From the NCBI GenBank assembly GCA_964425305.1, contig CAYRMQ010000003.1, positions 2,162-66,161 on the forward strand: DNA of 64,000 nucleotides. Reading direction: 5' to 3'. Origin of the DNA: an uncultured Anaerolineaceae bacterium. GTDB lineage: Bacteria > Chloroflexota > Limnocylindria > Limnocylindrales > CSP1-4. Every line of letters starts with the position of its first letter. Position 1 is the stretch's first letter. The notes beneath the pieces were generated by a model. The model was not told the origin of the DNA, made no database searches, and saw nothing but the letters and a program-made list of their open reading frames with translations. The translations under genes and the position numbers were made by a program. Shown in pieces: positions 1-31,907 of this stretch.

Positions 1-159
1 AGCTGCCGGACGGCGTGGCGCTGCGCAGCCTGGGCGAGCACCGCCTGCGCGGGTTGCCTCACGCCATCGAGTTGCTCCAGGTCCTGGCCACCGGGCTCGA
101 CCGTGACGGGCCGGCGCTTCGCCCGACGTGAGCTGCGCCTGACGTAAGAGGGAAGGAAT

Positions 160-236
160 TGGTCGGGGCGGCCGGATTTGAACCGGCGACCCCAGCGTCC
201 CGAACGCTGTGCGCTACCAGGCTGCGCCACGCCCCG
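160..236 (-). tRNA. tRNA-Pro (anticodon CGG)
   Basis: Reverse complement folds as a canonical cloverleaf: acceptor CGGGGCG/CGCCCCG, D-arm GCGC-AGCCTGGTA-GCGC, anticodon stem CAGCG/CGCTG with loop TTCGGGA (anticodon CGG), T-arm GCCGG-TTCAAAT-CCGGC, discriminator A and encoded CCA. The plus-strand ORF 159..428 ([11 protein letters not shown]...) is a translation artefact of the tRNA. Confidence 0.85.
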
Positions 237-4192: not shown

Positions 4193-4367
4193 AAAAGCGC
4201 CGAGACGGGCACACGAGGACCGGAGATTGCCCGCTCAGACCGTGCCTTTGCCCTCGCATGTGCGCTCCGTTGCACATCTGAGGGTAGGGTGGCCCGGGTT
4301 GGCGGTCGTGATGTGCCCGTGGACGCACTTCTGGCGGGAATTGCCGGTGGCGCGAGCGAGGTCTGGG

Positions 4368-4982: not shown

Positions 4983-7592
4983 CTATGGCGTCAAGCTCAG
5001 GCTGTACCAGCGCGCGGCCTCGACCGCCTCGCGCGTGAACGGCAGCGGCAGCGGCGCGTTGCCCAGCCAGCGCTCGATGAGGTCCTCGTAGTGAGCGTCG
5101 AAGGGCAGCCCGGACTGGCCGGTGGCATGCAGGATCGTCGCGCCGTCGAGGTCGCTCATCTCGATGACCAATCGGTAGGACGGGTGGCTGGTGGCGGCGA
5201 AGACCCGGCGCAGGTCTGCCGGGCCATCGTCGGCGGCGGGGTACTCGCGGGTGATCGGCCCGCAGATCTTGTTGACGATCGTGCACGAGCCGGGTGCCGC
5301 GAACGGGCCGCGGTTGAAGATTGCCTCCAGCGGACCGATACCCGAGCGACCGAAGGTCTCCTCGGTGAGCGTCACGGTGTGGATCCGCCCCCAGCTCCAG
5401 TTGGGCGGGTCGCCGAGCGTGTGGCGCAGGTCGGCGCCCGCCTCGTCGAGGGCGCGCGCGATGATCGCGTCACGGTCCTCGCGCACGGCCGTCGTCGTGT
5501 CGTCCCACCAGCCGTTGTCGGGTTGGGCGAGCAGGCGGACGACTGCCTCGTGCGACGGCTCGCTGCCGACGTACCATCGGATGAGAGTTCCCGGGCCATC
5601 CCGCTCGGCCAGCTCGTCGTCGAAAACGCCGCGCAGCAGCCGGTAGGTGAAGGACTCGTAGGCGGCACAGCCGATGGAGGCCACGCCGCAGCGCAGGTCG
5701 GTCCGCCAGTCGCGGATGCGGTCGCGGACGAGACGACCGTCGGCCGTCTCGGGCGACGCGCCGGCGACCGCCTCGATGACCGGGCGCGCGCGGGTCAGCG
5801 CGACGTCGGCCTGCATCGTCCGCAGTTCGTCGGCCGTCACCGGCGCAAGCTGCTCGAGCAGCTCGAGGGCACGCTCGGCGCGGTAACCCGGGTCCCAGTC
5901 GCGGCCGAGGTGATGCCCGTAGCCGGCGTCGGTGGGCGCGTTGTTGGCCGTCACGATGAGGCCGCTGGGCGGGTCGAGGACAGACGGCAGCTCGTCGAAG
6001 GCGACCCAGCCGGTCCAGTCATGGCTGCCGTCCTCACCGGGTGAGGGCACCGACCCGTCGCCCGCCGCGCGCAGCGGGATCCGGCCGGGGACCTGCAGGC
6101 CGATGTGGCCGTCGACGTCGGCGTAGAGGAACGCCTGCGAGGGCGCCACGAAGTCGCGCAGGGCGTTGCGGAACTCGGTCCAGTTGGCGGCTCGGTTGAC
6201 GCCAAGCACGGCGTCGAAGGTCCGGTCGGGCTCCATGATCGACGGCCAGGCGAGGGCGTAGGCGTGGCCGGCGCGGCCGAGTCCCTCGCCGCCGGCATCC
6301 CGCTCGCGCAGCTCGCCGGCGACGTCGCTGAGCAGCGGCCCGTGCACGCTGCGCCGGATGGTGACCGTCTCCTCCTCACCGCCGGCGATACGGATGGTTT
6401 CGTCGCGCACGTCGAACGGAACGCTGCGACCACGGTGGAGGTAGTGGCCGGCGCGCCGCGGGTCGAGCGTCTCCTCGAACAGGTCCTGAACGTCCGGGCC
6501 GAGGTTGGTCAGGCCCCAAGCGATGCGTGCGTTGTGCCCGAGGACGATGCCCGGCACGCCGGGGAAGCCGGCGCCGACCACGTCGTACGGACACTCGCGG
6601 CCGACCGGCTCGCAGTGCAGGCCGACGAGGTACCAGAGAGATGGGATCGACATGCCGAGATGCGGATCGTTGGCCAGCAGCGCAGCCCCCGTCGCCGACC
6701 GCGCCGGCGCCACCGCCCAGCCGTTCGACCCGAGCCCCGCCGCGTCGAGGCCTGCCCCGGCGGCGGGATCGAGCCGCGCCAGCAGCCGCTCGTTCAGCTC
6801 GAGCAGCGGAAGGAGCGCATCGCCGCCTGTGGCGGCCGGCGGCGACGCTCGCCGGCCGGGCGCCGGCCGCGCCAGCTCGCTCGTGCCCACGATGATCGGT
6901 CGCCCCGCATCGTAGTCGGGCAGCAGCTCGGCGATGGCCGCCTCGGACAGGCCGCGCTCGGCCAGCGCCGAGCGGAACACCTCCGCGCTCCACGTCCCGC
7001 CGAGCGACCAGGCCATGACCTTGACCCAGGTGAGGCTGTCGACGGCCGTCCACGGCTCGGGCCGGTAGCCGGCGAGGCCGCCGCCGGCGCCGAGCAGGCC
7101 GGCGACGACGAACTGCAGCGGCAGGTCGCCGTGCTGGTCCAGCCAGGCGTTGACCCCCTCGGCGTATGCCTCGAGGGCGAGGCGGGCAGGAGGTGACATG
7201 GCCGACACGTCGGCCTCGGCGGCAGGGCGCCAGCCGAGGGTGCGGATGAAGCGGTCCGTCTCGACCTCGCTGGCGCCGAAGATCTCGGCCAAACGGCCGG
7301 CCCCGACGCGGCGCCAGACCTCCATCTGCCACATCCGCTCGCTGGCGTGGACGTAGCCCTGGGCGGCGAACAGGTCACGCGCGGAGGCGGCGTAGACGTG
7401 CGCCACGCCGGCCGAGTCGCGCATCACCGTCACCTCGGCGGCGAGGCCTGGCAGGCGCACCGTGCCGTCGCGCTCCGGGAAGCTGCGCACGATGATCCAG
7501 CCGAGCAGCCCGCCGCCTACCAGTGCCGCGATCAAGAGCACGATCAGCGCGGTGCTGAGCAGGCTCTGTAGCGCACCGAACAGCCGGCTCAC
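4983..7592 (-). CDS. penicillin-acylase family Ntn-hydrolase (penicillin amidase / acyl-homoserine-lactone acylase-like), N-terminal TM/signal
   Basis: 869 aa. The autoproteolytic beta-subunit N-terminus GLGSNGWAV (Ser-Asn-x-Trp) and family-typical spacing are present; N-terminal hydrophobic segment. Confidence 0.85.
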   Translation of the reverse strand: MSRLFGALQSLLSTALIVLLIAALVGGGLLGWIIVRSFPERDGTVRLPGLAAEVTVMRDSAGVAHVYAASARDLFAAQGYVHASERMWQMEVWRRVGAGRLAEIFGASEVETDRFIRTLGWRPAAEADVSAMSPPARLALEAYAEGVNAWLDQHGDLPLQFVVAGLLGAGGGLAGYRPEPWTAVDSLTWVKVMAWSLGGTWSAEVFRSALAERGLSEAAIAELLPDYDAGRPIIVGTSELARPAPGRRASPPAATGGDALLPLLELNERLLARLDPAAGAGLDAAGLGSNGWAVAPARSATGAALLANDPHLGMSIPSLWYLVGLHCEPVGRECPYDVVGAGFPGVPGIVLGHNARIAWGLTNLGPDVQDLFEETLDPRRAGHYLHRGRSVPFDVRDETIRIAGGEEETVTIRRSVHGPLLSDVAGELRERDAGGEGLGRAGHAYALAWPSIMEPDRTFDAVLGVNRAANWTEFRNALRDFVAPSQAFLYADVDGHIGLQVPGRIPLRAAGDGSVPSPGEDGSHDWTGWVAFDELPSVLDPPSGLIVTANNAPTDAGYGHHLGRDWDPGYRAERALELLEQLAPVTADELRTMQADVALTRARPVIEAVAGASPETADGRLVRDRIRDWRTDLRCGVASIGCAAYESFTYRLLRGVFDDELAERDGPGTLIRWYVGSEPSHEAVVRLLAQPDNGWWDDTTTAVREDRDAIIARALDEAGADLRHTLGDPPNWSWGRIHTVTLTEETFGRSGIGPLEAIFNRGPFAAPGSCTIVNKICGPITREYPAADDGPADLRRVFAATSHPSYRLVIEMSDLDGATILHATGQSGLPFDAHYEDLIERWLGNAPLPLPFTREAVEAARWYSLSLTP

Positions 7593-22390: not shown

Positions 22391-23194
22391 GTGGACGAGG
22401 ACCTGCGGCGCCGGCTGGCCGCCTCTGGCTACGACATGGCCGGCTTCGCCGCGCGTTACGACGCCGCCCGACCACGGCCGCCGGCGCTGTTGCGGGACAT
22501 GTTGCCGGCGCTGGCCGGAGTCGCCAGCCCGCGACTCGTCGTGGACCTCGGCAGCGGCACCGGCCTCTCGACGCGCTACTGGTCGGACGCCGCCGACGAG
22601 GTGGTCGGAGTCGAGCCCAATCACGCCATGTGCACCTGGGCGGAGGCGGCAACCGAGGCTGCGAACGTCCGCTACATTCAAGCGCCGGCCGAGAAGACCG
22701 GGCTTCCCGCCAGCTGCGCCGACATCGTCACCGCCGCCCAGTCGCTGCAGTGGCTGGACCCGGAGCGGGCCTTCCCGGAGATCGGGCGCATCCTGCGTCC
22801 GGGCGGCGTCTTCTGTGCCTACGAGTACTTCACCCTCCAGACGCCGCTGTGGGAGCCCGAGGCAGCCTGGCGAAAGGTGCGCGACGCCGTCGGCCGCCGG
22901 CGCGCCGAGCTGGGCCTCGACGCCGAGTTGCGGCTGTGGCCGACCGGCATCGCACCGCTGAAGGCGAGCAGCGTGTTCCGCGACGTGCGTGAGCTGGCGC
23001 TGCACAGCCTCGAGCAGGGCGACGGCGAGCGGCTGCTCGGCTGGGCACTCAGCGAGGGCAGCCTGCAGACATTGCTGGCGGCAGGGATCAGCGAGAAGGA
23101 GGTCGGGCTCGAGGAGCTGCGCCGGGCCGTCGCAGGGCTGCGCGAGCCGGTCGACTGGTGGATCGGCTACAGCGCCTGGATCGGGCGGCGCTGA
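22391..23194 (+). CDS. class I SAM-dependent methyltransferase
   Basis: Motif I …LVVDLGSGTGLST…, motif post-I and …ILRPGGVF…; GTG start. Confidence 0.75.
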   Translation: MDEDLRRRLAASGYDMAGFAARYDAARPRPPALLRDMLPALAGVASPRLVVDLGSGTGLSTRYWSDAADEVVGVEPNHAMCTWAEAATEAANVRYIQAPAEKTGLPASCADIVTAAQSLQWLDPERAFPEIGRILRPGGVFCAYEYFTLQTPLWEPEAAWRKVRDAVGRRRAELGLDAELRLWPTGIAPLKASSVFRDVRELALHSLEQGDGERLLGWALSEGSLQTLLAAGISEKEVGLEELRRAVAGLREPVDWWIGYSAWIGRR

Positions 23195-23213
23195 TGGTCG
23201 GGGCGGCGGGATT
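23195..23213. repeat. 19-nt direct repeat of the tRNA-Pro(TGG) 3' end (TGGTCGGGGCGGCGGGATT), immediately after the methyltransferase stop
   Basis: Identical to 23699..23717 (acceptor/T-stem/CCA end of the tRNA); the two copies bracket 485 bp. Confidence 0.6.
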
Positions 23214-23435
23214 AACTCGGTAGGAAGAGGATCCTCCATCCGCCTACGTCGCGAGCGCCGTCAGCCGGCCGCGCTGCCGGCTTGGTGTGGGCCATTCCCA
23301 CCAGAGCGACGTGAACTGACCGATCGATTCGACCGAGTCAGCGTTCCGGCGCGAGATGTGGCCATAGCCCACAACCAAATCTCATTTGGGTGCCGACGAG
23401 CCGCGGTTGGCAGTCACTCGCCGCCGTCGGCGGTG

Positions 23436-23545
23436 ATTTGCGGCCGGCTGGTGGGCAGTTTCCACACCCGGCCACCAGCGCCGCCACCCGATCGGTAGCG
23501 CGGGTCATCTGCGGCCGGTTGGTGGGTAGTTTCCACACCCGGCCA
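23436..23545. repeat. two 39-bp direct repeats (ATTTGCGGCCGGCTGGTGGGCAGTTTCCACACCCGGCCA and ATCTGCGGCCGGTTGGTGGGTAGTTTCCACACCCGGCCA), each with an internal GGCCGG…CCGGCC hairpin, separated by 32 nt
   Basis: Seen directly at 23436..23474 and 23507..23545 (4 mismatches); ORFs 22989..23498 and 23390..23593 just translate them. Confidence 0.6.
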
Positions 23546-23698
23546 GCGCGGAAGAGTAGGACGGGTCGTCGAGCTCGAGGTCCGGCGGAATAAAGGGCCA
23601 CAGCTGCCCTGCCGGGCCACAGCCTGCCGCCCGCCGAACCAGGGCCAACCCGCATCGGTCCAACTAGGCGAACGACTCCCACCGAGATAAAGCAGGGG

Positions 23699-23774
23699 TG
23701 GTCGGGGCGGCGGGATTTGAACCCGCGACCTCGTGCTCCCAAAGCACGTGCGCTAGCCACTGCGCCACGCCCCG
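23699..23774 (-). tRNA. tRNA-Pro (anticodon TGG)
   Basis: Cloverleaf on the reverse complement: acceptor CGGGGCG/CGCCCCG, D-arm GCGC-AGTGGCTA-GCGC, anticodon stem CGTGC/GCACG with loop TTTGGGA (anticodon UGG), T-arm GCGGG-TTCAAAT-CCCGC, discriminator A, CCA encoded. The plus ORF 23698..23907 is an artefact. Confidence 0.85.
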
Positions 23775-23994: not shown

Positions 23995-24984
23995 ATGCCC
24001 ACGGCAGGCGCCAGCGTGCGCCGCTACCGTCCGCGCCTGCCCGCGCGTCCGCGCTCACCGGTACGGCTGCGCGCGATCGCAGGCGTTGTCCTGTTGCCGG
24101 CGGTGATCTATGCGTCGGGAGCAACGTCGCCGGTCATCGACCAACCGGTCTGGATCGGCCAGGCCGAGGCAGCGGTGGAGGTCCTCGAGGATGCCGGCGA
24201 AGTCTTCGTCGGCGCCGGCGACATCGCCTACTGCAACCACGACGGCCAGGACAGGACGGCCGCCCTGCTCGACGAGATCGAGGGCACGGTCTTCACCATC
24301 GGCGACAACTCGCAGAACGAGGGCACGCACCAGCAGTTCCGCGACTGCTACGACCCGAGCTGGGGCCGCCACAAGTGGCGCACGCGGCCGGCGATCGGCA
24401 ACCACGACCGGCTGACGCCCGACGGCGCCGGCTACTTCGACTACTTCGGCGAGGCGGCCGGGCCGTGGGGTCGGGGCTACTACTCCTACGACCTGGGCGA
24501 GTGGCACATCGTCGTGCTCGACAGCAACTGCGAGATCGTCAGCTGTGAGGCGGGCTCGGAGCAGGAGCGCTGGCTGCGCCGCGACCTCGCCGAGAACGCG
24601 ACCCGCTGCACGCTGGCGATCTGGCACCACCCCCTCTTCAACTCGGGCGAGGTGGGCAACCACCCGCAGGTGCGCCACCTGTGGATCGAGCTCGCCGAAG
24701 CGGGCGCCGACGTCGTGCTGACCGGCCATGATCACCACTACGAGCGCTTCGCGCGGCAGGACGTCGACGGTCGGCCCGACCCGACGGGCATGCGCCAGTT
24801 CATCGTCGGCACGGGCGGCGCCTTCTTCCACCGACCAGCCGCGCGCCAGCCGAACAGCGAGGTCTACCGAGTCGGCACGCTGGGCGTGCTGAAGATGGAG
24901 CTGTGGCCGACGAGCTACACGTGGGAGTTCATCGCCGTCCCGGGCGATCCCTTCACCGACCGCGGGCGCGAGGACTGCGTCTAG
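23995..24984 (+). CDS. secreted calcineurin-like metallophosphoesterase (purple-acid-phosphatase-like)
   Basis: Signal-like N-terminus; metal-ligand motifs …GAGDIAYC…, …GDNSQNEG…, …AIGNHD…, …GHDHHYER…; strong GAGGGAGGGGG Shine-Dalgarno. Confidence 0.8.
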   Translation: MPTAGASVRRYRPRLPARPRSPVRLRAIAGVVLLPAVIYASGATSPVIDQPVWIGQAEAAVEVLEDAGEVFVGAGDIAYCNHDGQDRTAALLDEIEGTVFTIGDNSQNEGTHQQFRDCYDPSWGRHKWRTRPAIGNHDRLTPDGAGYFDYFGEAAGPWGRGYYSYDLGEWHIVVLDSNCEIVSCEAGSEQERWLRRDLAENATRCTLAIWHHPLFNSGEVGNHPQVRHLWIELAEAGADVVLTGHDHHYERFARQDVDGRPDPTGMRQFIVGTGGAFFHRPAARQPNSEVYRVGTLGVLKMELWPTSYTWEFIAVPGDPFTDRGREDCV

Positions 24985-25976: not shown

Positions 25977-28900
25977 ATGTTCCTCGACAGCGTCCGCGGG
26001 CCAAGGCCAGGGCTCCAGGCGGTTGAACCACCGGCGTATGCTCGCGGGGTGCAGATCGGCGTGTTGGGGACGCTCGAAGCGCACACCGACGGCGTCTCTG
26101 TTCGGTTAGGGGGGCCGAAACAGCGGACGGTCCTGGCAATCCTGGTTGCCGAGGGGGGACGGTCGGTTCCGATCGACCGTCTCGTCGATCTCGTTTGGGG
26201 CGAGGAGCCGCCGACGGGCGCCAGGAGCACGCTTCACACCTACATCTCGAATCTGCGTGCCGCGCTTGGCGACGTCGTCGTGCGCGACGGCGGTGGCTAT
26301 CGCCTCGACCTGCCGCGGGAGGCAGTCGACGCGTTTCGCTTCGAGGACGACGTTGCGCGCGCCAGGGAGACAAGAGATTCGCAGCCACTGGAGGCGGCTC
26401 AGCGGTTGCGGGAGGCGCTGAAGTTGTGGCGGGGTCGGCCGTATGCCGACGTGTCCGACTCGCCTTTCCTGGAGCAGGAGGCCCGGCGCCTGGAGGAGCT
26501 GCGCTTGACGGCCATCGAGAACCGCGTCGACGCCGAGCTGGCGCTGGGCAACCACGCCGAGCTGGTCGGTGAGCTCGAGGTGCTCACGGCCGAGAATCCT
26601 CTGCGCGAGCACCTGCGCGCGGCGCACATGCTGGCGCTGTACCGTGCGGGTCGCCAGGCGGAGGCGCTTCGCGCCTACCATAAGACGCGCACGCTGCTGG
26701 CCGAGGAGCTGGGCATCGATCCCTCGCCCGCCCTGCAGGAGCTCGAGGGCAAGATCCTGCGCCAGGACCACTCGCTCGACCTGGAGAGCGAGCCTCGCGT
26801 CGAGACGCTCGTCTTCCTGCTGTCCGACATCGAGGACTCAACCGTCCTGTGGGAACTGCACCAGCGCGAGATGGGTCCTGCCGTGGCGCTGTACGACGCG
26901 ATCGTCAGCGAGGCGGTCGAGGGAGCTGGCGGACGAGTGGTCAAGCGCGTGGGCGACGGCCTCGACGCCGTGTTCTCTGACGCGGGCGGCGCGGTGGTCG
27001 CCGCGCGTGAGGCGCAGCGGGCGCTGCAACGGGGGACCTGGGGCGAAACGGGTCCGCTCAAGGCTCGCATGGCGATCGATGTCGGCGAAGTAGAGGCGCG
27101 AGGAGGTGGATACTTCGGCCCTGTCCTCAATCGCTGCGGTCGGATCCTGGCCTCCGGTCACGGCGGGCAGATCCTTCTCTCGGCCGAGGCGCATGCCGCG
27201 CTGTCGGGCGCGCAGGCGGGCTGGCAGGTCCGCGCACTGGGCGAGTTCCGCTTCAAGGGCCTGGGCCGTCCGCAACGCGTCTTCCAGCTACTGGTTGACG
27301 ACCTGCCGACGGAGTTTCCCGAGCTGCGCATCGACCGACTGCCGGCGACGGCCAGGATCAGCGTCGAGCGAGCCGTGCGGGGCTACGAGCTGCGCGAGCA
27401 GGTGGGAGGGGGAGACTTCGGCGTCGTTTACCGCGCCTACCAGCCGGCGGTCGGCCGCGAGGTGGCGGTCAAGGTCATTCGGCCCGAGTTCGTCAATCAG
27501 CCCTCCTTCGTGCGCCGCTTCGAGAGCGAAGCGCAGATGGTGGCCCAGCTCGAGCACCCCCACATCGTGGCGCTCTACGACTACTGGCGGGATCCCGATG
27601 GCGCTTACCTTGTCATGCGCTGGCTGCGCGGGGGCGCGCTGAGTGACGCGCTCGATCGCGGACCCTGGCACCTCGAGCCGGCTTCACGGCTGCTGGCGCA
27701 GGTCGGCTCGGCTCTCGCCTACGCCCATCGCCAGGGGATCGTGCATCGCGACCTCAAGCCGGGCAACGTGCTGCTCGACGAGGAGGGCAACGCCTACCTG
27801 TCGGACTTCGGCGTGGCGGCGCGCCTGGTCGACGCATCCGAGTCGGGTCGGCCGGTCTCCTCGTCGCCCGCCTATGTGACACCCGAGGAGCTGCGGGGCG
27901 AGCCGCTGCGCGCGCCGTCGGACATCTTCGCGCTGGGGCTGCTTACGTTCGAGTTGCTCTCTGGTCGCCGCCCACCGATGGACCGCTCCCTCCCCTCGCT
28001 CAGGCGGCTGCGACCAGAGCTGCCCGAAGGAATCGACGAGATCATCGCTCGCGCGACGGCCGATCAACCGGCGGCCCGCTACTCAACGGTGGACGGGTTC
28101 CTGGCAGCGTTCCTCGACGTGCTGGGCCAGGCTCCGGTGGCCGAGGAAGCCGGCTTCACGCCAACACGCAACCCGTACAAGGGGCTGCAGGCCTTCAGCG
28201 AGTTCGACGAGCAGGACTTCCATGGTCGGCAGGGGTTGATCGAGGAGCTGACCGAAGCGCTCAAGAAGCACCGTTTCCTGGCCGTCGTGGGGCCCTCGGG
28301 CATCGGCAAGTCATCTGTCGTGCGCGCTGGGCTGGTGCCGGCGCTACGCGCCGGCGCGTTGCCCGGATCCCGTGATTGGCTGGTAACCGACATGTTCCCC
28401 GGCTCCTATCCCTTCGAGGAGCTGGAGGCCGCGTTGCTGCGCATAGCCGTCGAGCGCCCGGTGGGCATGACCGAGGATCTGGCTCGGGACGAACGCGGCA
28501 TCCTGCGCGTCAGCAAGCGCATCCTGCCGACCAGCGCGCAGGCGATGCTCGTCATCGACCAGTTCGAGGAGCTGTTCACGCTGACCTCCGACGAGGAGAC
28601 GCGCCGGCTTTTCCTCGATGCGCTCGCCACACTGGTCACCGACCCGCGTTCCAGGATGCGCGTGGTCATCACCCTGCGCGCTGACTTCTTCGACCGTCCC
28701 CTGCGCTACCGAGCCTTCGGGGACCTGCTGCGTGACAGGATGGTAGCCGTCACCGCGCCCGGCGAAGGAGAGCTGACTGCCGCCATCGTCAGGCCGGCGG
28801 AGGCCGTTGGCGTGCGCTTCGAGGCCGGTCTCGTCGACCGCATCATCACTGACGTCAGTAGTCAGCCGGGCGCACTGCCGCTGCTGCAGTATGCGCTGAC

Positions 28901-31900
28901 CGAGCTCTTTGCCTCGCGCACCTCCGACCTGCTGACCGTTCACGGCTACCAGGCTTCGGGGCGCGTGCTGGGCGCGCTTGGACGACGGGCTGAGGAGCTC
29001 TACGAGTCGCTCGATGAGGATGGCCGAGAGGCCGCTCGGCAGGTGTTCCTGCGCCTGGTGGCAGTCAGCGAGGTGGGCGAGGACACGCGCCGGCGCGTCC
29101 GCCACCAGGAGCTCGACGCGCTGGGAGTGGATGCGCTGACTCTCGACGAGGTGCTGCGCCGATACGGCGAGTACCGGCTGCTGACCTTCGATCGCGACCC
29201 GCTGACCCGCGGGCCCACGGTGGAAGTGGCCCACGAGGCGCTGCTGACCGAGTGGCATCGGCTGCGCGACTGGATCGCCGAGCGGCGTGAGGACCTGCTG
29301 CTCCAGAGACGCCTGGCCGATGCCCTTGGCGAGTGGGAGCAGGCCGGCCGGGATGCCTCATACCTGCTGAGCGGCGGGCGGCTGCAGCAGTTCGCCGCCT
29401 GGGCGGACGGCACCGACCTTGCCTTGACCACCCAAGAGCGCGAGTACCTGCACGACAGCGAGGCTGCCGAGGCAGAGCGCAGGCGCCTCCAGCGGCGCCG
29501 GCGGCGAGCCATCATGGCCGGCTTCGGCGCAGCCGCAGCCCTGTCGCTGGTCCTCGCTGCGGTCGCATATCTCAACGAACGCCAAGCGCTGCACAACGAG
29601 CAGCTGGCGCACGCTCGAGAGCTGGCCGCAGCGGCGATCAGCGTCCGCGACACCGATCCTGAACTGAGCATCCTCCTGTCGATCGCGGCGCACGAGGCGG
29701 CGCCCGACGGCGAGGCGCCGCCGCGCGAAGTCGTGTCAGTCCTCCACCAGACGGTCCGCTCCAGCCGGATGCTTGTCAGCCGGCCGTGGGAGGCTGACTT
29801 CGGGCTCAGCTGGTCGCCACTGGGCGGCTCGTTGAGTCCTGACGGGACGCTGGTCGCCGCCAGCGGCTGGTCCGACACTCTGCAGGTGTGGGACGCAGCC
29901 ACCGGCGAGGTGCGCTGGGAGCTGCGGGACGATGAGAGCGGCGGCTGGTTCTGGTGGCCCCAGTTCAGCCCGGACGGCTCAAGGCTGGTGGTGGCCTTCA
30001 GCCGCTACTGGGAAGAAGGCCGCCGAGTCGACGGCGGCCTGGCCGCCGGCATCTACTTCTTCCACTCGCGCAACGGGGAGTTGTTGGACATGCTGCCGCC
30101 GCCGACGGAATGCGACTGGGTTGGAATGGCGGGACCTAATGCACTCAGCCTCGACGGCAACCACCTGATCCGCCTGGTCGATCGAGGCGGCGAAGACCCC
30201 GAGACGGGGTGTTACTCCTACGAAGGGCCTGAGAACAACCCCCTGGCGACGCGGGAACTCGAGGTAGTCGATATCCGTACGCTCGAAGTCGTCTATCGCA
30301 CCGACGTGACCTACCCGTACGGCGAGAACCGCGGCCATGGGCAGGCGGGCGTGGACATCGCCGGCAACCGGCTGATCGTGGGAGACCTGTCCGGTGATCA
30401 TGGAACGACGCGCATGATCGACCTCGTCGACGGCAGCGTGCTCTGGGAAAGGGCGGCTGTCGGCGGCTTTCTCAGTCCCGATGGCTCGGTGGCGGCGCTG
30501 GCCGGCGGCGGCGCAGCCCAGCGGCGTATCGAGCTCGTCGATCCTGCGACGGGCGACCTACTGGGCGAGCTGGTTGGCCACAGAGCGCATACCGACGCCG
30601 TGGTCTTCAGCCGCGACGGCCGGCTCGCCTACTCGGCAGGCATGGACGGGACGGCTCGGGTGTGGGACGTGGCCACTGGCGAGAACCTGCTGACCCTCGG
30701 TGGTGACAAGCAAGGCTTGATATCTCTGTCGCCGGACGAAAGTGGCGCGAGATTGGCCACATTCGGGTTCGACGGCAACACCCGGATGTGGGACCTGACC
30801 GCGCAGCCCCTGACCGAGGTGGGGACCGCGATCGATCTGCGCCCCGCGCAGGTCGCCCTAAGGGGCATCATGGCAAGCGGTGGTCTGGCGACTGTCGCCG
30901 GTTTCCTTGGAGAATGCCCCGACCAGGAAGGGTTCTCCATCGTCTTCAATGCCGAGACCGGCACGACCATGCGACGCTTCACCGACTCGGCCGGCCAGAT
31001 GGAGGCGTTGCTACCCGACGGTACGGGCGTCCTCCACCAGCTGCTTGTGCTGTACGGGCCGGAGATCAGCTGCGCCGACGAGATCCTTGGCCCGCTCGTC
31101 ATCCGCGATCTGACGAGCGGCGAGACACGCATCGAGCTGGAGGGCTGGTGCGAGTGGGCGGATCCCGGCGACTGCGCCTCCCCGCCTGAAGTGCCGTACG
31201 CCGACTTCGTAAACGCACTGGCCGTGTCCGATGACGGGAGAATTGCCGTCGCCGGTGGCCCCAGCGGTGCGGCGTCGATCTGGGACGTGCACGAAGGCTC
31301 CCTGCACGGGACGATAGGACCATTCCAGGGTGAGGGGTGGATCCAGGGCGTCGCCGTCCACCCGGACGGGAGAACCGCGGTCGTAACCAGCTCTGAGGCC
31401 CTTTACATCGTGGACCTCGACAGTGCGCTGAACATACGGCAGGAGCTGCGGAGTCACCACGGCTTCGTCGCCTTCAATCCCGGTGGATCACTGCTCGCCG
31501 TTGGCGAACCCCGCCTGACGATGTACCGAACCGAGGATTGGGAGGTCATGTGGGAGGTGGATGCTCACGATGGCGGGGTTCCCCACCTCGGCTTCAGCCC
31601 GGACGGGACTGCCCTCGTGACCACCGGCCCGGACGGCTTCGTGCGCCTGTGGAGCGCGACTGACGGCAACCTGCTGCAGGTCGTTCCACTGGGCGACGAT
31701 TGGGCCAAGGCGGTGGCCTTCGTCAACGAGCGGCACGTGCTCATAGGTACGTCCAATGGCCTGGTGGTCGGCCTCACCTTCGACGTCGACGAGCTCGTCG
31801 AGATCGGCCGCTCCCGGGTGACTCGTTCGCTGACCGATCAGGAGTGCCGGACGTACCTGCGCATCGACGAGTGCCCGTCAGACATGGAGACGACCGCGTC

Positions 31901-31907
31901 TCAGTAG
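25977..31907 (+). CDS. 1976-aa multidomain signalling protein: SARP wHTH+BTAD / class III nucleotide cyclase / Ser-Thr protein kinase / STAND P-loop NTPase / single TM helix / WD40 beta-propeller
   Basis: Single uninterrupted ORF. Approximate domain coordinates: SARP 26049..26771 (…YRLDLPREAVDAFRFEDDV…, BTAD …ELRLTAIENRVDAELALGNHAELVGELE…); cyclase 26799..27311 (FLLSDIEDST, KRVGDG, GPVLNRCGRI); kinase 27378..28136 (GGGDFGVVY, VAVK, HRDLKPGNVLL, DFG); NTPase 28164..28976 (NPYKGLQAFSEFDEQDFHGRQ, Walker A GPSGIGKSS, Walker B MLVIDQFEE); TM 29508..29573 (AIMAGFGAAAALSLVLAAVAYL); WD40-like repeats 29769..31904. Confidence 0.85.
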   Translation: MFLDSVRGPRPGLQAVEPPAYARGVQIGVLGTLEAHTDGVSVRLGGPKQRTVLAILVAEGGRSVPIDRLVDLVWGEEPPTGARSTLHTYISNLRAALGDVVVRDGGGYRLDLPREAVDAFRFEDDVARARETRDSQPLEAAQRLREALKLWRGRPYADVSDSPFLEQEARRLEELRLTAIENRVDAELALGNHAELVGELEVLTAENPLREHLRAAHMLALYRAGRQAEALRAYHKTRTLLAEELGIDPSPALQELEGKILRQDHSLDLESEPRVETLVFLLSDIEDSTVLWELHQREMGPAVALYDAIVSEAVEGAGGRVVKRVGDGLDAVFSDAGGAVVAAREAQRALQRGTWGETGPLKARMAIDVGEVEARGGGYFGPVLNRCGRILASGHGGQILLSAEAHAALSGAQAGWQVRALGEFRFKGLGRPQRVFQLLVDDLPTEFPELRIDRLPATARISVERAVRGYELREQVGGGDFGVVYRAYQPAVGREVAVKVIRPEFVNQPSFVRRFESEAQMVAQLEHPHIVALYDYWRDPDGAYLVMRWLRGGALSDALDRGPWHLEPASRLLAQVGSALAYAHRQGIVHRDLKPGNVLLDEEGNAYLSDFGVAARLVDASESGRPVSSSPAYVTPEELRGEPLRAPSDIFALGLLTFELLSGRRPPMDRSLPSLRRLRPELPEGIDEIIARATADQPAARYSTVDGFLAAFLDVLGQAPVAEEAGFTPTRNPYKGLQAFSEFDEQDFHGRQGLIEELTEALKKHRFLAVVGPSGIGKSSVVRAGLVPALRAGALPGSRDWLVTDMFPGSYPFEELEAALLRIAVERPVGMTEDLARDERGILRVSKRILPTSAQAMLVIDQFEELFTLTSDEETRRLFLDALATLVTDPRSRMRVVITLRADFFDRPLRYRAFGDLLRDRMVAVTAPGEGELTAAIVRPAEAVGVRFEAGLVDRIITDVSSQPGALPLLQYALTELFASRTSDLLTVHGYQASGRVLGALGRRAEELYESLDEDGREAARQVFLRLVAVSEVGEDTRRRVRHQELDALGVDALTLDEVLRRYGEYRLLTFDRDPLTRGPTVEVAHEALLTEWHRLRDWIAERREDLLLQRRLADALGEWEQAGRDASYLLSGGRLQQFAAWADGTDLALTTQEREYLHDSEAAEAERRRLQRRRRRAIMAGFGAAAALSLVLAAVAYLNERQALHNEQLAHARELAAAAISVRDTDPELSILLSIAAHEAAPDGEAPPREVVSVLHQTVRSSRMLVSRPWEADFGLSWSPLGGSLSPDGTLVAASGWSDTLQVWDAATGEVRWELRDDESGGWFWWPQFSPDGSRLVVAFSRYWEEGRRVDGGLAAGIYFFHSRNGELLDMLPPPTECDWVGMAGPNALSLDGNHLIRLVDRGGEDPETGCYSYEGPENNPLATRELEVVDIRTLEVVYRTDVTYPYGENRGHGQAGVDIAGNRLIVGDLSGDHGTTRMIDLVDGSVLWERAAVGGFLSPDGSVAALAGGGAAQRRIELVDPATGDLLGELVGHRAHTDAVVFSRDGRLAYSAGMDGTARVWDVATGENLLTLGGDKQGLISLSPDESGARLATFGFDGNTRMWDLTAQPLTEVGTAIDLRPAQVALRGIMASGGLATVAGFLGECPDQEGFSIVFNAETGTTMRRFTDSAGQMEALLPDGTGVLHQLLVLYGPEISCADEILGPLVIRDLTSGETRIELEGWCEWADPGDCASPPEVPYADFVNALAVSDDGRIAVAGGPSGAASIWDVHEGSLHGTIGPFQGEGWIQGVAVHPDGRTAVVTSSEALYIVDLDSALNIRQELRSHHGFVAFNPGGSLLAVGEPRLTMYRTEDWEVMWEVDAHDGGVPHLGFSPDGTALVTTGPDGFVRLWSATDGNLLQVVPLGDDWAKAVAFVNERHVLIGTSNGLVVGLTFDVDELVEIGRSRVTRSLTDQECRTYLRIDECPSDMETTASQ

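Follow-up and report, generated by a model that had tools for sequence, protein, structure and literature searches.

The 64,000-nt stretch of DNA analyzed here (hereafter, the window), from an uncultured Anaerolineaceae bacterium, encodes an intact tRNA-Pro(TGG), which is separated from the end of a convergent methyltransferase gene by a gene-less segment (hereafter, the islet) and by a second copy of the tRNA 3′ end (Table 1). The methyltransferase and the metallophosphoesterase that flank these features are chromosomal genes, and the methyltransferase retains a full-length C-terminus when aligned with seven homologues. To describe the surroundings, we checked about 35 long open reading frames (ORFs) of the window, among them the gene candidates with high GC3 that lie up to about 23 kb left and about 17 kb right of the islet. 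These encode only ordinary chromosomal functions (e.g., MFS transporter, histidine kinase, glutamine synthetase, ResB, penicillin amidase, GMP synthase, MreC, metallophosphoesterase, and luciferase-like monooxygenase), together with a 1976-aa BTAD-kinase-STAND-WD40 protein. Among them we detected no gene for an integrase, excisionase, transposase, or relaxase and none of phage origin.

Table 1 Features of the tRNA-Pro(TGG) locus, in window coordinates.
Feature	Position	Strand	Basis or remark
SAM-dependent methyltransferase, chromosomal flank	22391..23194	+	Pfam Methyltransf_11, E 4e-20
Distal, displaced 19-nt copy, attR-like	23195..23213	-	Exact match; adjoins methyltransferase stop codon
Gene-less islet between the 19-mer copies, 485 bp	23214..23698	.	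Composition; profile and homology searches
Third repeat copy, inverted	23267..23304	-	74% identical to copy 1; loop AATGGC
Fourth related dyad, TGTGG-N7-CCACA	23357..23373	.	Inverted-pair search
Direct repeat copy 1, 43 nt, core GGTGGG-CAGTTT-CCACACC	23432..23474	+	Repeat search, fold
Direct repeat copy 2, 43 nt, core GGTGGG-TAGTTT-CCACACC	23503..23545	+	91% identical to copy 1
GGGCCACAGC direct-repeat pair, 19 nt apart	23595..23623	+	Near tRNA-proximal islet end
Proximal 19-nt identity block, true tRNA 3′ end	23699..23717	-	Exact match
tRNA-Pro(TGG), intact, CCA encoded	23699..23774	-	ARAGORN; Rfam RF00005, 71 bits
Metallophosphoesterase, divergent from tRNA, chromosomal flank	23995..24984	+	Pfam; exact protein on record

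The last 19 bases of tRNA-Pro(TGG), written as plus-strand letters, are TGGTCGGGGCGGCGGGATT. A sequence search of the 64-kb window located this 19-mer exactly at 23195–23213 and again at 23699–23717, as an earlier note on this DNA had claimed. The second of these is the true tRNA 3′ end, because ARAGORN and Rfam both call an intact tRNA-Pro(TGG) at 23699–23774. Within the tRNA, the 19-nt block takes in 3 nt at the end of the T-loop, the 3′ strands of both the T-stem and the acceptor stem, the discriminator, and CCA. The methyltransferase stop codon (TGA) occupies 23192–23194 and the distal 19-mer begins on the very next base, so that, relative to the minus-strand tRNA, it is downstream, past the 3′ end, and in the same orientation. 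Based on base composition (0.36^14 x 0.14^5 x 128,000 positions), about 4e-6 exact matches are expected per window, and shuffles gave an expectation of 0.05 matches with three or fewer mismatches in the whole window. The sole other near-match is the 3′ end of tRNA-Pro(CGG) (160–236, one mismatch). The duplication is real and far beyond chance; the chance match that the earlier note had named as a possible objection is set aside by the ~4e-6 expectation against the match seen.

We also considered whether the distal 19-mer might be a chance match after all, or might serve in the 3′ UTR of the methyltransferase as an antisense or primer-binding-like site for tRNA-Pro; we regard either as extremely improbable. 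The plus-strand 19-mer begins with TGG and could pair with the tRNA 3′ end at every base, a combination that formally resembles a retroviral primer-binding site. Among the matches to the 19-mer listed from other genomes, two alphaproteobacterial stretches (L061 and L077) carry a 19–20-mer inside apparent coding sequence and look like chance, showing that isolated chance or convergent cases exist across 596 Gb. However, the chance expectation for the window is the low figure given above, and only 485 bp separate the match from its own tRNA, in the island configuration. Any attR fragment will, moreover, always read as antisense to the tRNA when taken from the other strand. Among the ORFs checked, none nearby encodes a reverse transcriptase or a related protein.

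Identity between the two 19-mer copies ends sharply at both sides, with local alignment of the flanks scoring below the shuffle mean. This bears on the idea that a second, tandem tRNA-Pro gene decayed in place, leaving the distal 19-mer as its last piece without any mobile element. A parallel exists in a Rhodanobacteraceae MAG (L039), where an orphan 19–20-mer lies 172 nt downstream of tRNA-Pro(GGG) and the orphan stretch also retains the tRNA 5′ motif GGCGTAGCG, thereby resembling a degenerate whole tRNA. In the window, by contrast, the 80 bases past the distal 19-mer do not resemble the remaining 57 nt of the tRNA (P = 0.58–0.72, anchored alignments compared to random window segments), and the Infernal tRNA model found no partial tRNA beside the distal 19-mer even at E<=10. 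Moreover, 19 of 19 perfect bases beside an unrecognisable remainder are not expected from neutral decay. Residual tRNA similarity of the kind present in L039 was thus not found beside the distal 19-mer, and we consider decay in place of a tandem tRNA gene to be unlikely.

One feature of the distal edge hints at a longer original block. When 2 nt are skipped after the distal 19-mer, the sequence continues with AACTCG, a common tRNA-Pro T-arm variant (cgAACTCGcg), for which the empirical P of ~0.01 is post hoc, the statistic having been picked once the data had been seen. The distal block may thus once have run through the T-arm, with an original length of about 27 nt, and may now carry a 2-nt deletion in its T-loop part. 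Such a deletion, if real, would make the distal site a dead attR.

The segment between the two copies spans 23214–23698, and the length of 485 bp given for it previously is correct. Its GC content (~0.64–0.70) is slightly below that of the flanking genes (~0.72–0.73). Of 19 six-frame islet pieces of >=30 aa, the 10 that were longest and most islet-internal were scanned, and these yielded no credible Pfam or PHROG match, even at E<=10, and no detectable remnant of an integrase pseudogene. The products of ten candidate islet ORFs were all absent from a collection of 15 billion proteins that includes the contig's own public annotation. Thus, the description of the islet as gene-free holds as far as it is testable. 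Known structured RNAs were rejected as well, given that no Rfam covariance model other than tRNA reached its gathering score in the islet (best extra matches E >=0.1, far short of threshold). Neither a sigma-70-like promoter nor an intrinsic terminator with a U-tract was found in the islet, and the latter was likewise rejected as an explanation. Compared to shuffles, the fold of the whole islet was somewhat better on the minus strand (z -4.1) than on the plus strand (z -1.9).

Although gene-less, the islet is rich in short repeats. The earlier note had described paired 39-bp repeats containing hairpins; both the pair and its capacity to form hairpins were borne out, but the repeats measure 43 nt rather than 39. 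Each may fold into a hairpin with a bulge, whose stability is modest (z -1.2 to -2.7) and unremarkable for DNA of 70% GC. The inverted third copy and the fourth related dyad are additions to that description. In the third copy, both stem arms are kept (CTGGTGGG … CCACACC) and the core GGTGGG-N6-CCACACC is exact, with a different loop. Motifs of this type are enriched in the islet: 4 of the 12 GTGG-N5-8-CCAC sites of the window fall inside it (Poisson P ~3e-6), and CCACA occurs five times compared to an expectation of 0.37. The only two copies of GGGCCACAGC in the window lie near the tRNA, at 23595 and 23614; this pair could represent putative short protein-binding sites.

The repeats were searched for more widely. 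No other copy was found in the rest of the 64-kb window or in 2.1 Mb of fetched loci, the strict hairpin pattern had no match in the JGI metagenomes, and the exact core pattern had none in the IMG/VR viral contigs, where a looser core pattern had two matches, about the chance level. Two known repeat-bearing structures were rejected. A CRISPR mini-array does not fit the presence of only two direct copies (91% identical, period 71) together with an inverted third copy, and no cas domain was found among the ORFs checked. A MITE does not fit the islet ends, which show only weak complementarity (CTCGGTAGGAAG vs CTCGGTGGGAG) at unequal distances from the ends and below the repeat-search threshold; no further copy was found in the window or elsewhere searched, and the flanking repeat is the 19-nt tRNA end rather than a target-site duplication.

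Based on these properties, we lean towards reading the 19-nt duplicate as the attL/attR footprint of a tyrosine-integrase element at tRNA-Pro(TGG) that is now a gene-less remnant resembling a cis-mobilizable element (CIME). An att-type footprint of site-specific integration, as had been proposed, is supported by the chance level of the match, the geometry of the two copies, their sharp edges, the lack of any trace of a second tRNA, and the length of the block. Both forms that the earlier note had suggested for the segment, a decayed remnant and a small non-autonomous element targeting this tRNA, are compatible with such a footprint. The element, either an actinomycete-type integrative element or a prophage, would have inserted into tRNA-Pro(TGG) by a crossover between the T-loop and the 3′ end of the gene. 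Its own copy of the tRNA 3′ end would have rebuilt the gene at 23699–23717 (attL side), and the original 3′ end would have been displaced to 23195–23213, beside its former downstream neighbor, the methyltransferase stop codon. A subsequent deletion may have removed every gene of the element, the integrase among them, so that 485 bp of its non-coding DNA are left between cores that look intact. The dyads (GGTGGG-N6-CCACACC in three copies, one related dyad, and GGGCCACAGC in two copies) are probably leftover putative protein-binding sites of an attachment or regulatory region and, lying between two convergent genes, would be able to fold into hairpins as well.

Under this scheme, the empty site would read …GGCGGCGCTGA-TGGTCGGGGCGGCGGGATT-TGAACCCGCGACC… (…GCGCTGA-TGGTCGGGGCGGCGGGATT-TGAACCC…). 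The ancestral tRNA 3′ end would accordingly have stood 0 nt from the convergent stop codon, a tight arrangement that speaks against an integration scar; however, tRNA-Pro(CGG) in the same window likewise has a convergent ORF, which ends ~30 nt from it.

To place the locus among relatives, homologues of the flanking genes and of the islet were compared. The best non-self match of the methyltransferase is 70% identical, and the contigs of six methyltransferase homologues (among the loci L003, L004, L127, and L128–L132) have different neighbors and are not syntenic with the window; ARAGORN found no tRNA in L003 and L004. Similarly, none of 80 metagenome loci with metallophosphoesterase relatives (45–58% identical) has a tRNA-Pro near that gene. 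The nearest relatives of the flanking proteins are therefore only 45–70% identical and none keeps a tRNA beside the gene, which suggests that the lineage is isolated in the databases. No related genome examined shows an empty or an occupied site, and this weighs against the interpretation as a scar. Searches with the islet itself (blastn) returned no match in PLSDB plasmids, GenBank phages, or the fetched loci. An islet homologue beside an integrase was found in none of the collections searched (plasmids, phages, viral contigs, JGI metagenomes, and fetched loci), which is a further point against that interpretation.

Independent assemblies support part of the locus. The Logan assemblies of two runs (SRR12687320 and SRR12687321) reproduce its left side through the distal 19-mer and the first 92 nt of the islet, and both stop exactly at 23305, bordering the inverted repeat copy. 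Right-side Logan contigs begin at 23726, inside the tRNA. Independent support thus covers 23195–23305 and 23726 onward, whereas the interior (23306–23725) is known from the MAG assembly alone, which also counts against an integration scar. SNP-level strain variants are present in these samples. The identical break at 23305 hints at strain-level variation, with a structural variant possibly starting at 23306.

Two further alternatives draw on this break. In one, which we consider unlikely, the islet belongs to a larger element that varies between strains, or results from an assembly shortcut: a larger island or other sequence may lie between the tRNA and the distal 19-mer in the actual population, and the MAG contig would represent one collapsed path. 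The retrieved Logan contigs reach 23305 on the left and resume at 23726 on the right, the left break falls at the same base in two runs, and SNP-level strain diversity is present, all of which fits such a case. However, the break at 23726 is accounted for by other species that share the anticodon-arm 30-mer but differ at 23725, and the window itself is one continuous assembled path. In addition, no exact stretch of >=31 nt is common to the internal repeats, which therefore would not collapse the assembly graph.

In the other, the islet is a still-mobile, gene-less mini-element consisting of intact attL and attR and an array of putative binding sites for a recombinase or accessory proteins; its movement, in trans or by accretion, would depend on an integrase from another part of the genome or from an incoming element. 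This is rather unlikely, albeit with several observations in its favor: both 19-nt cores are perfectly identical, the dyad and direct motifs of the islet are well above background, and helper-dependent movement is known for CIME-type elements (PMC5704250). Moreover, the break of two assemblies exactly at 23305, beside a motif copy and with strain variants present, is compatible with a presence/absence or structural polymorphism. On the other hand, no second copy of the islet was found in the 64-kb window, the 2.1 Mb of fetched loci, the JGI metagenomes, or the viral contigs, and no integrase among the window ORFs checked. The distal site may also carry the 2-nt deletion in its T-loop part, and the contig break at 23305 has other possible causes. 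The more specific version, in which a living islet of two att cores and a dyad-site array is moved in trans and is polymorphic among co-occurring strains, with 23305 marking a structural variant, is improbable. If the islet were excised or varied between strains, it would be among the smallest integrase-dependent passengers known, and a mobile islet would offer a compact natural substrate for determining the cis requirements of an integrase of the T-loop/3′-end class.

Returning to the preferred reading of an integration scar, we compared the locus to known systems. The Islander approach maps the ends of islands by an intact tRNA and a downstream, co-oriented 3′ fragment (PMC4383910). As in Islander islands, both the intact target tRNA and the co-oriented downstream 3′ fragment are present in the window, but the tyrosine integrase that Islander looks for inside the interval was not found in the ten six-frame islet pieces scanned. 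In a survey of Klebsiella tDNA islands, the repeats were 15–221 bp long (mode 20–25 bp) and often began in the T-loop; the 19-nt block, which runs from the T-loop to CCA, is short yet within the normal range of tDNA islands. Furthermore, tRNA-Pro is a documented target in actinomycetes, with pSAM2 and a 43-bp repeat at the Pro-tRNA of S. coelicolor as examples (PMC2440964). The window locus shares with pSAM2-type elements the tRNA-Pro target and an identity block that runs to the CCA end. It differs from actinomycete integrative elements in having no replication, transfer, or regulation modules, and in block length (19 nt vs 43–58 nt in the actinomycete Pro-tRNA examples).

The attP of mycobacteriophage Ms6 contains a 26-bp core in the T-arm of tRNA-Ala (PMC1762012). 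Like the window block, this core spans the T-arm to the 3′ end and stops before the variable region; unlike it, the window block begins inside the T-loop (3 of 7 nt) and does not include the 5′ strand of the T-stem, unless the reading with a 2-nt gap is correct. The closest structural analogue is the CIME, in which att sites are retained while the integration and transfer genes have been lost (PMC5704250). The islet resembles a CIME in its two identical 19-nt cores (putative attL/attR) with no integrase, excisionase, or transfer genes between them. It differs in being only 485 bp long with zero genes, in that its descent from an ICE, IME, or prophage would have to be inferred, and possibly in the 2-nt deletion of its distal site.

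A gene-less integration scar is a common kind of genomic fossil, and this locus is probably a new instance. It has little import beyond annotation, for which it would identify tRNA-Pro(TGG) as a site of past integration in a high-GC lineage that is poorly sampled. What it would illustrate is the shrinkage of an integrated element to 485 gene-less bases with both att cores still perfect.

The same 19-mer was examined in other genomes and viruses. It is a widely conserved, pan-bacterial tRNA-Pro 3′ end: among the matches listed, which come from >=120 genome stretches of many phyla, 106 of 122 occurrences lie within a tRNA-Pro and 16 lie outside any tRNA call. Most of these 16 orphans are displaced fragments. 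In 65 stretches of viral contigs, 35 of 67 matches were not inside a tRNA call, including a few that are cut by stretch ends. Among the matches listed, 46 orphans had enough flanking sequence for the identity block to be measured: 30 blocks were 45–50 nt long and extended to the anticodon loop, five were 25–28 nt long (T-loop class), and the only other 19-nt block was that of the apparent tRNA pseudogene in L039. That clean comparators in this set have blocks of 25–28 or ~45–50 nt is an observation that runs against the scar interpretation. The comparator nearest in form is a betaproteobacterial MAG (L084), in which a 1.8-kb islet extends from tRNA-Pro(GGG) to a copy of the 19-mer and contains a 428-aa tyrosine integrase as its only gene. 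Both loci thus consist of a short islet between a tRNA-Pro and a copy of the same 19-mer, but L084 has kept its integrase, and the identity block of L084, with 37 nt of exact match, extends as far as the anticodon-stem region. By analogy with L084, a decay series from a full island, through an integrase-only stage, to an islet in which nothing is left is plausible.

Two Logan contigs from different sequencing runs (L001 and L002) share an exact end point at 23305, and this end, at 23305/23306, coincides with the edge of the inverted copy of the islet's 43-nt repeat. None of the independent assemblies recovered the islet interior (23306–23725). Either structural variation between strains or a property of the assembly graph could explain the common stop. 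Besides the repeats, the gene-less islet between the two 19-mer copies contains a perfect palindrome and, deeper inside, a separate strong hairpin (see the table of features), neither of which is followed by a U-tract. The islet ends are weakly complementary (CTCGGTAGGAAG vs CTCGGTGGGAG on the other strand; 23214–23228 vs 23675–23698), and in the fold predicted for the entire islet it is their pairing that closes the structure; however, these stretches are unequally spaced from their 19-mers and the pairing is statistically not notable.

Fragments of tRNA-Pro were found in other genomes. In the betaproteobacterial stretch L084, the 3′ fragment of tRNA-Pro(GGG) is an exact match over 37 nt, and the sole content of the intervening islet is a 428-aa tyrosine integrase (Arm-DNA-bind_3, Phage_int_M, Phage_integrase), i.e., this is a minimal, integrase-only island. 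In the Rhodanobacteraceae stretch L039, the tRNA's 5′ motif GGCGTAGCG and its 3′-terminal 20 nt are both retained around a degenerate middle; the stretch resembles a tandem tRNA-Pro gene that has decayed into a pseudogene and whose T-loop is shortened.

The 19-mer also occurs outside tRNA-Pro. In viral contigs (IMG/VR), tRNA-Leu(CAG) genes and one tRNA-Ile(TAT) have it as their 3′ end, and L219 and L271 each carry two such tRNA-Leu(CAG) genes, spaced 912 nt; the acceptor/T-arm sequence is thus common to phage-borne tRNAs of other identities. The two alphaproteobacterial stretches containing the 19–20-mer resemble coding sequence and have no tRNA in their vicinity, showing that isolated, non-att occurrences of the 19-mer exist at the 596 Gb scale.

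The window encodes a second tRNA-Pro (CGG). A convergent ORF (window 1–159 region) appears to stop roughly 30 nt short of this tRNA's 3′ end, and therefore convergent genes packed tightly against tRNA 3′ ends seem to be normal in this genome. Because the downstream side of this tRNA continues beyond the window edge, an island may lie there. Lastly, the gene encoding a giant multidomain protein has a GC3 under 0.85, a value that neighbouring genes reach, and was therefore left out by the gene filter (GC3 cut-off 0.85); the genome may have acquired it more recently.

Coordinates of features in the window and in the comparison stretches
Feature	Location	Position	Details
tRNA-Pro (CGG)	window	160–236	19-mer present with one mismatch
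Perfect 10-bp palindrome	window	23227–23236	GAGGATCCTC; 14 nt into islet
Strong hairpin	window	23316–23341	CTGACCGATCGATTCGACCGAGTCAG
1976-aa protein gene	window (+)	25977–31907	Trans_reg_C, BTAD, Ser/Thr kinase, nSTAND1 NTPase, WD40 repeats
tRNA-like stretch	L039, MAG DASSOQ010000029.1	7483–7749	172 nt downstream of tRNA-Pro(GGG)
1.8-kb islet	L084, MAG CAWGRF010000030.1	1573–3489	between tRNA-Pro(GGG) and its 3′ fragment
19–20-mer	L061 (Alphaproteobacteria)	4283–4301	conserved GC-rich stretch
19–20-mer	L077 (Alphaproteobacteria)	7305–7323	conserved GC-rich stretch
Non-Pro tRNAs ending in 19-mer	L218–L220, L223, L225, L231, L235, L248, L271, L274 (IMG/VR contigs); L273
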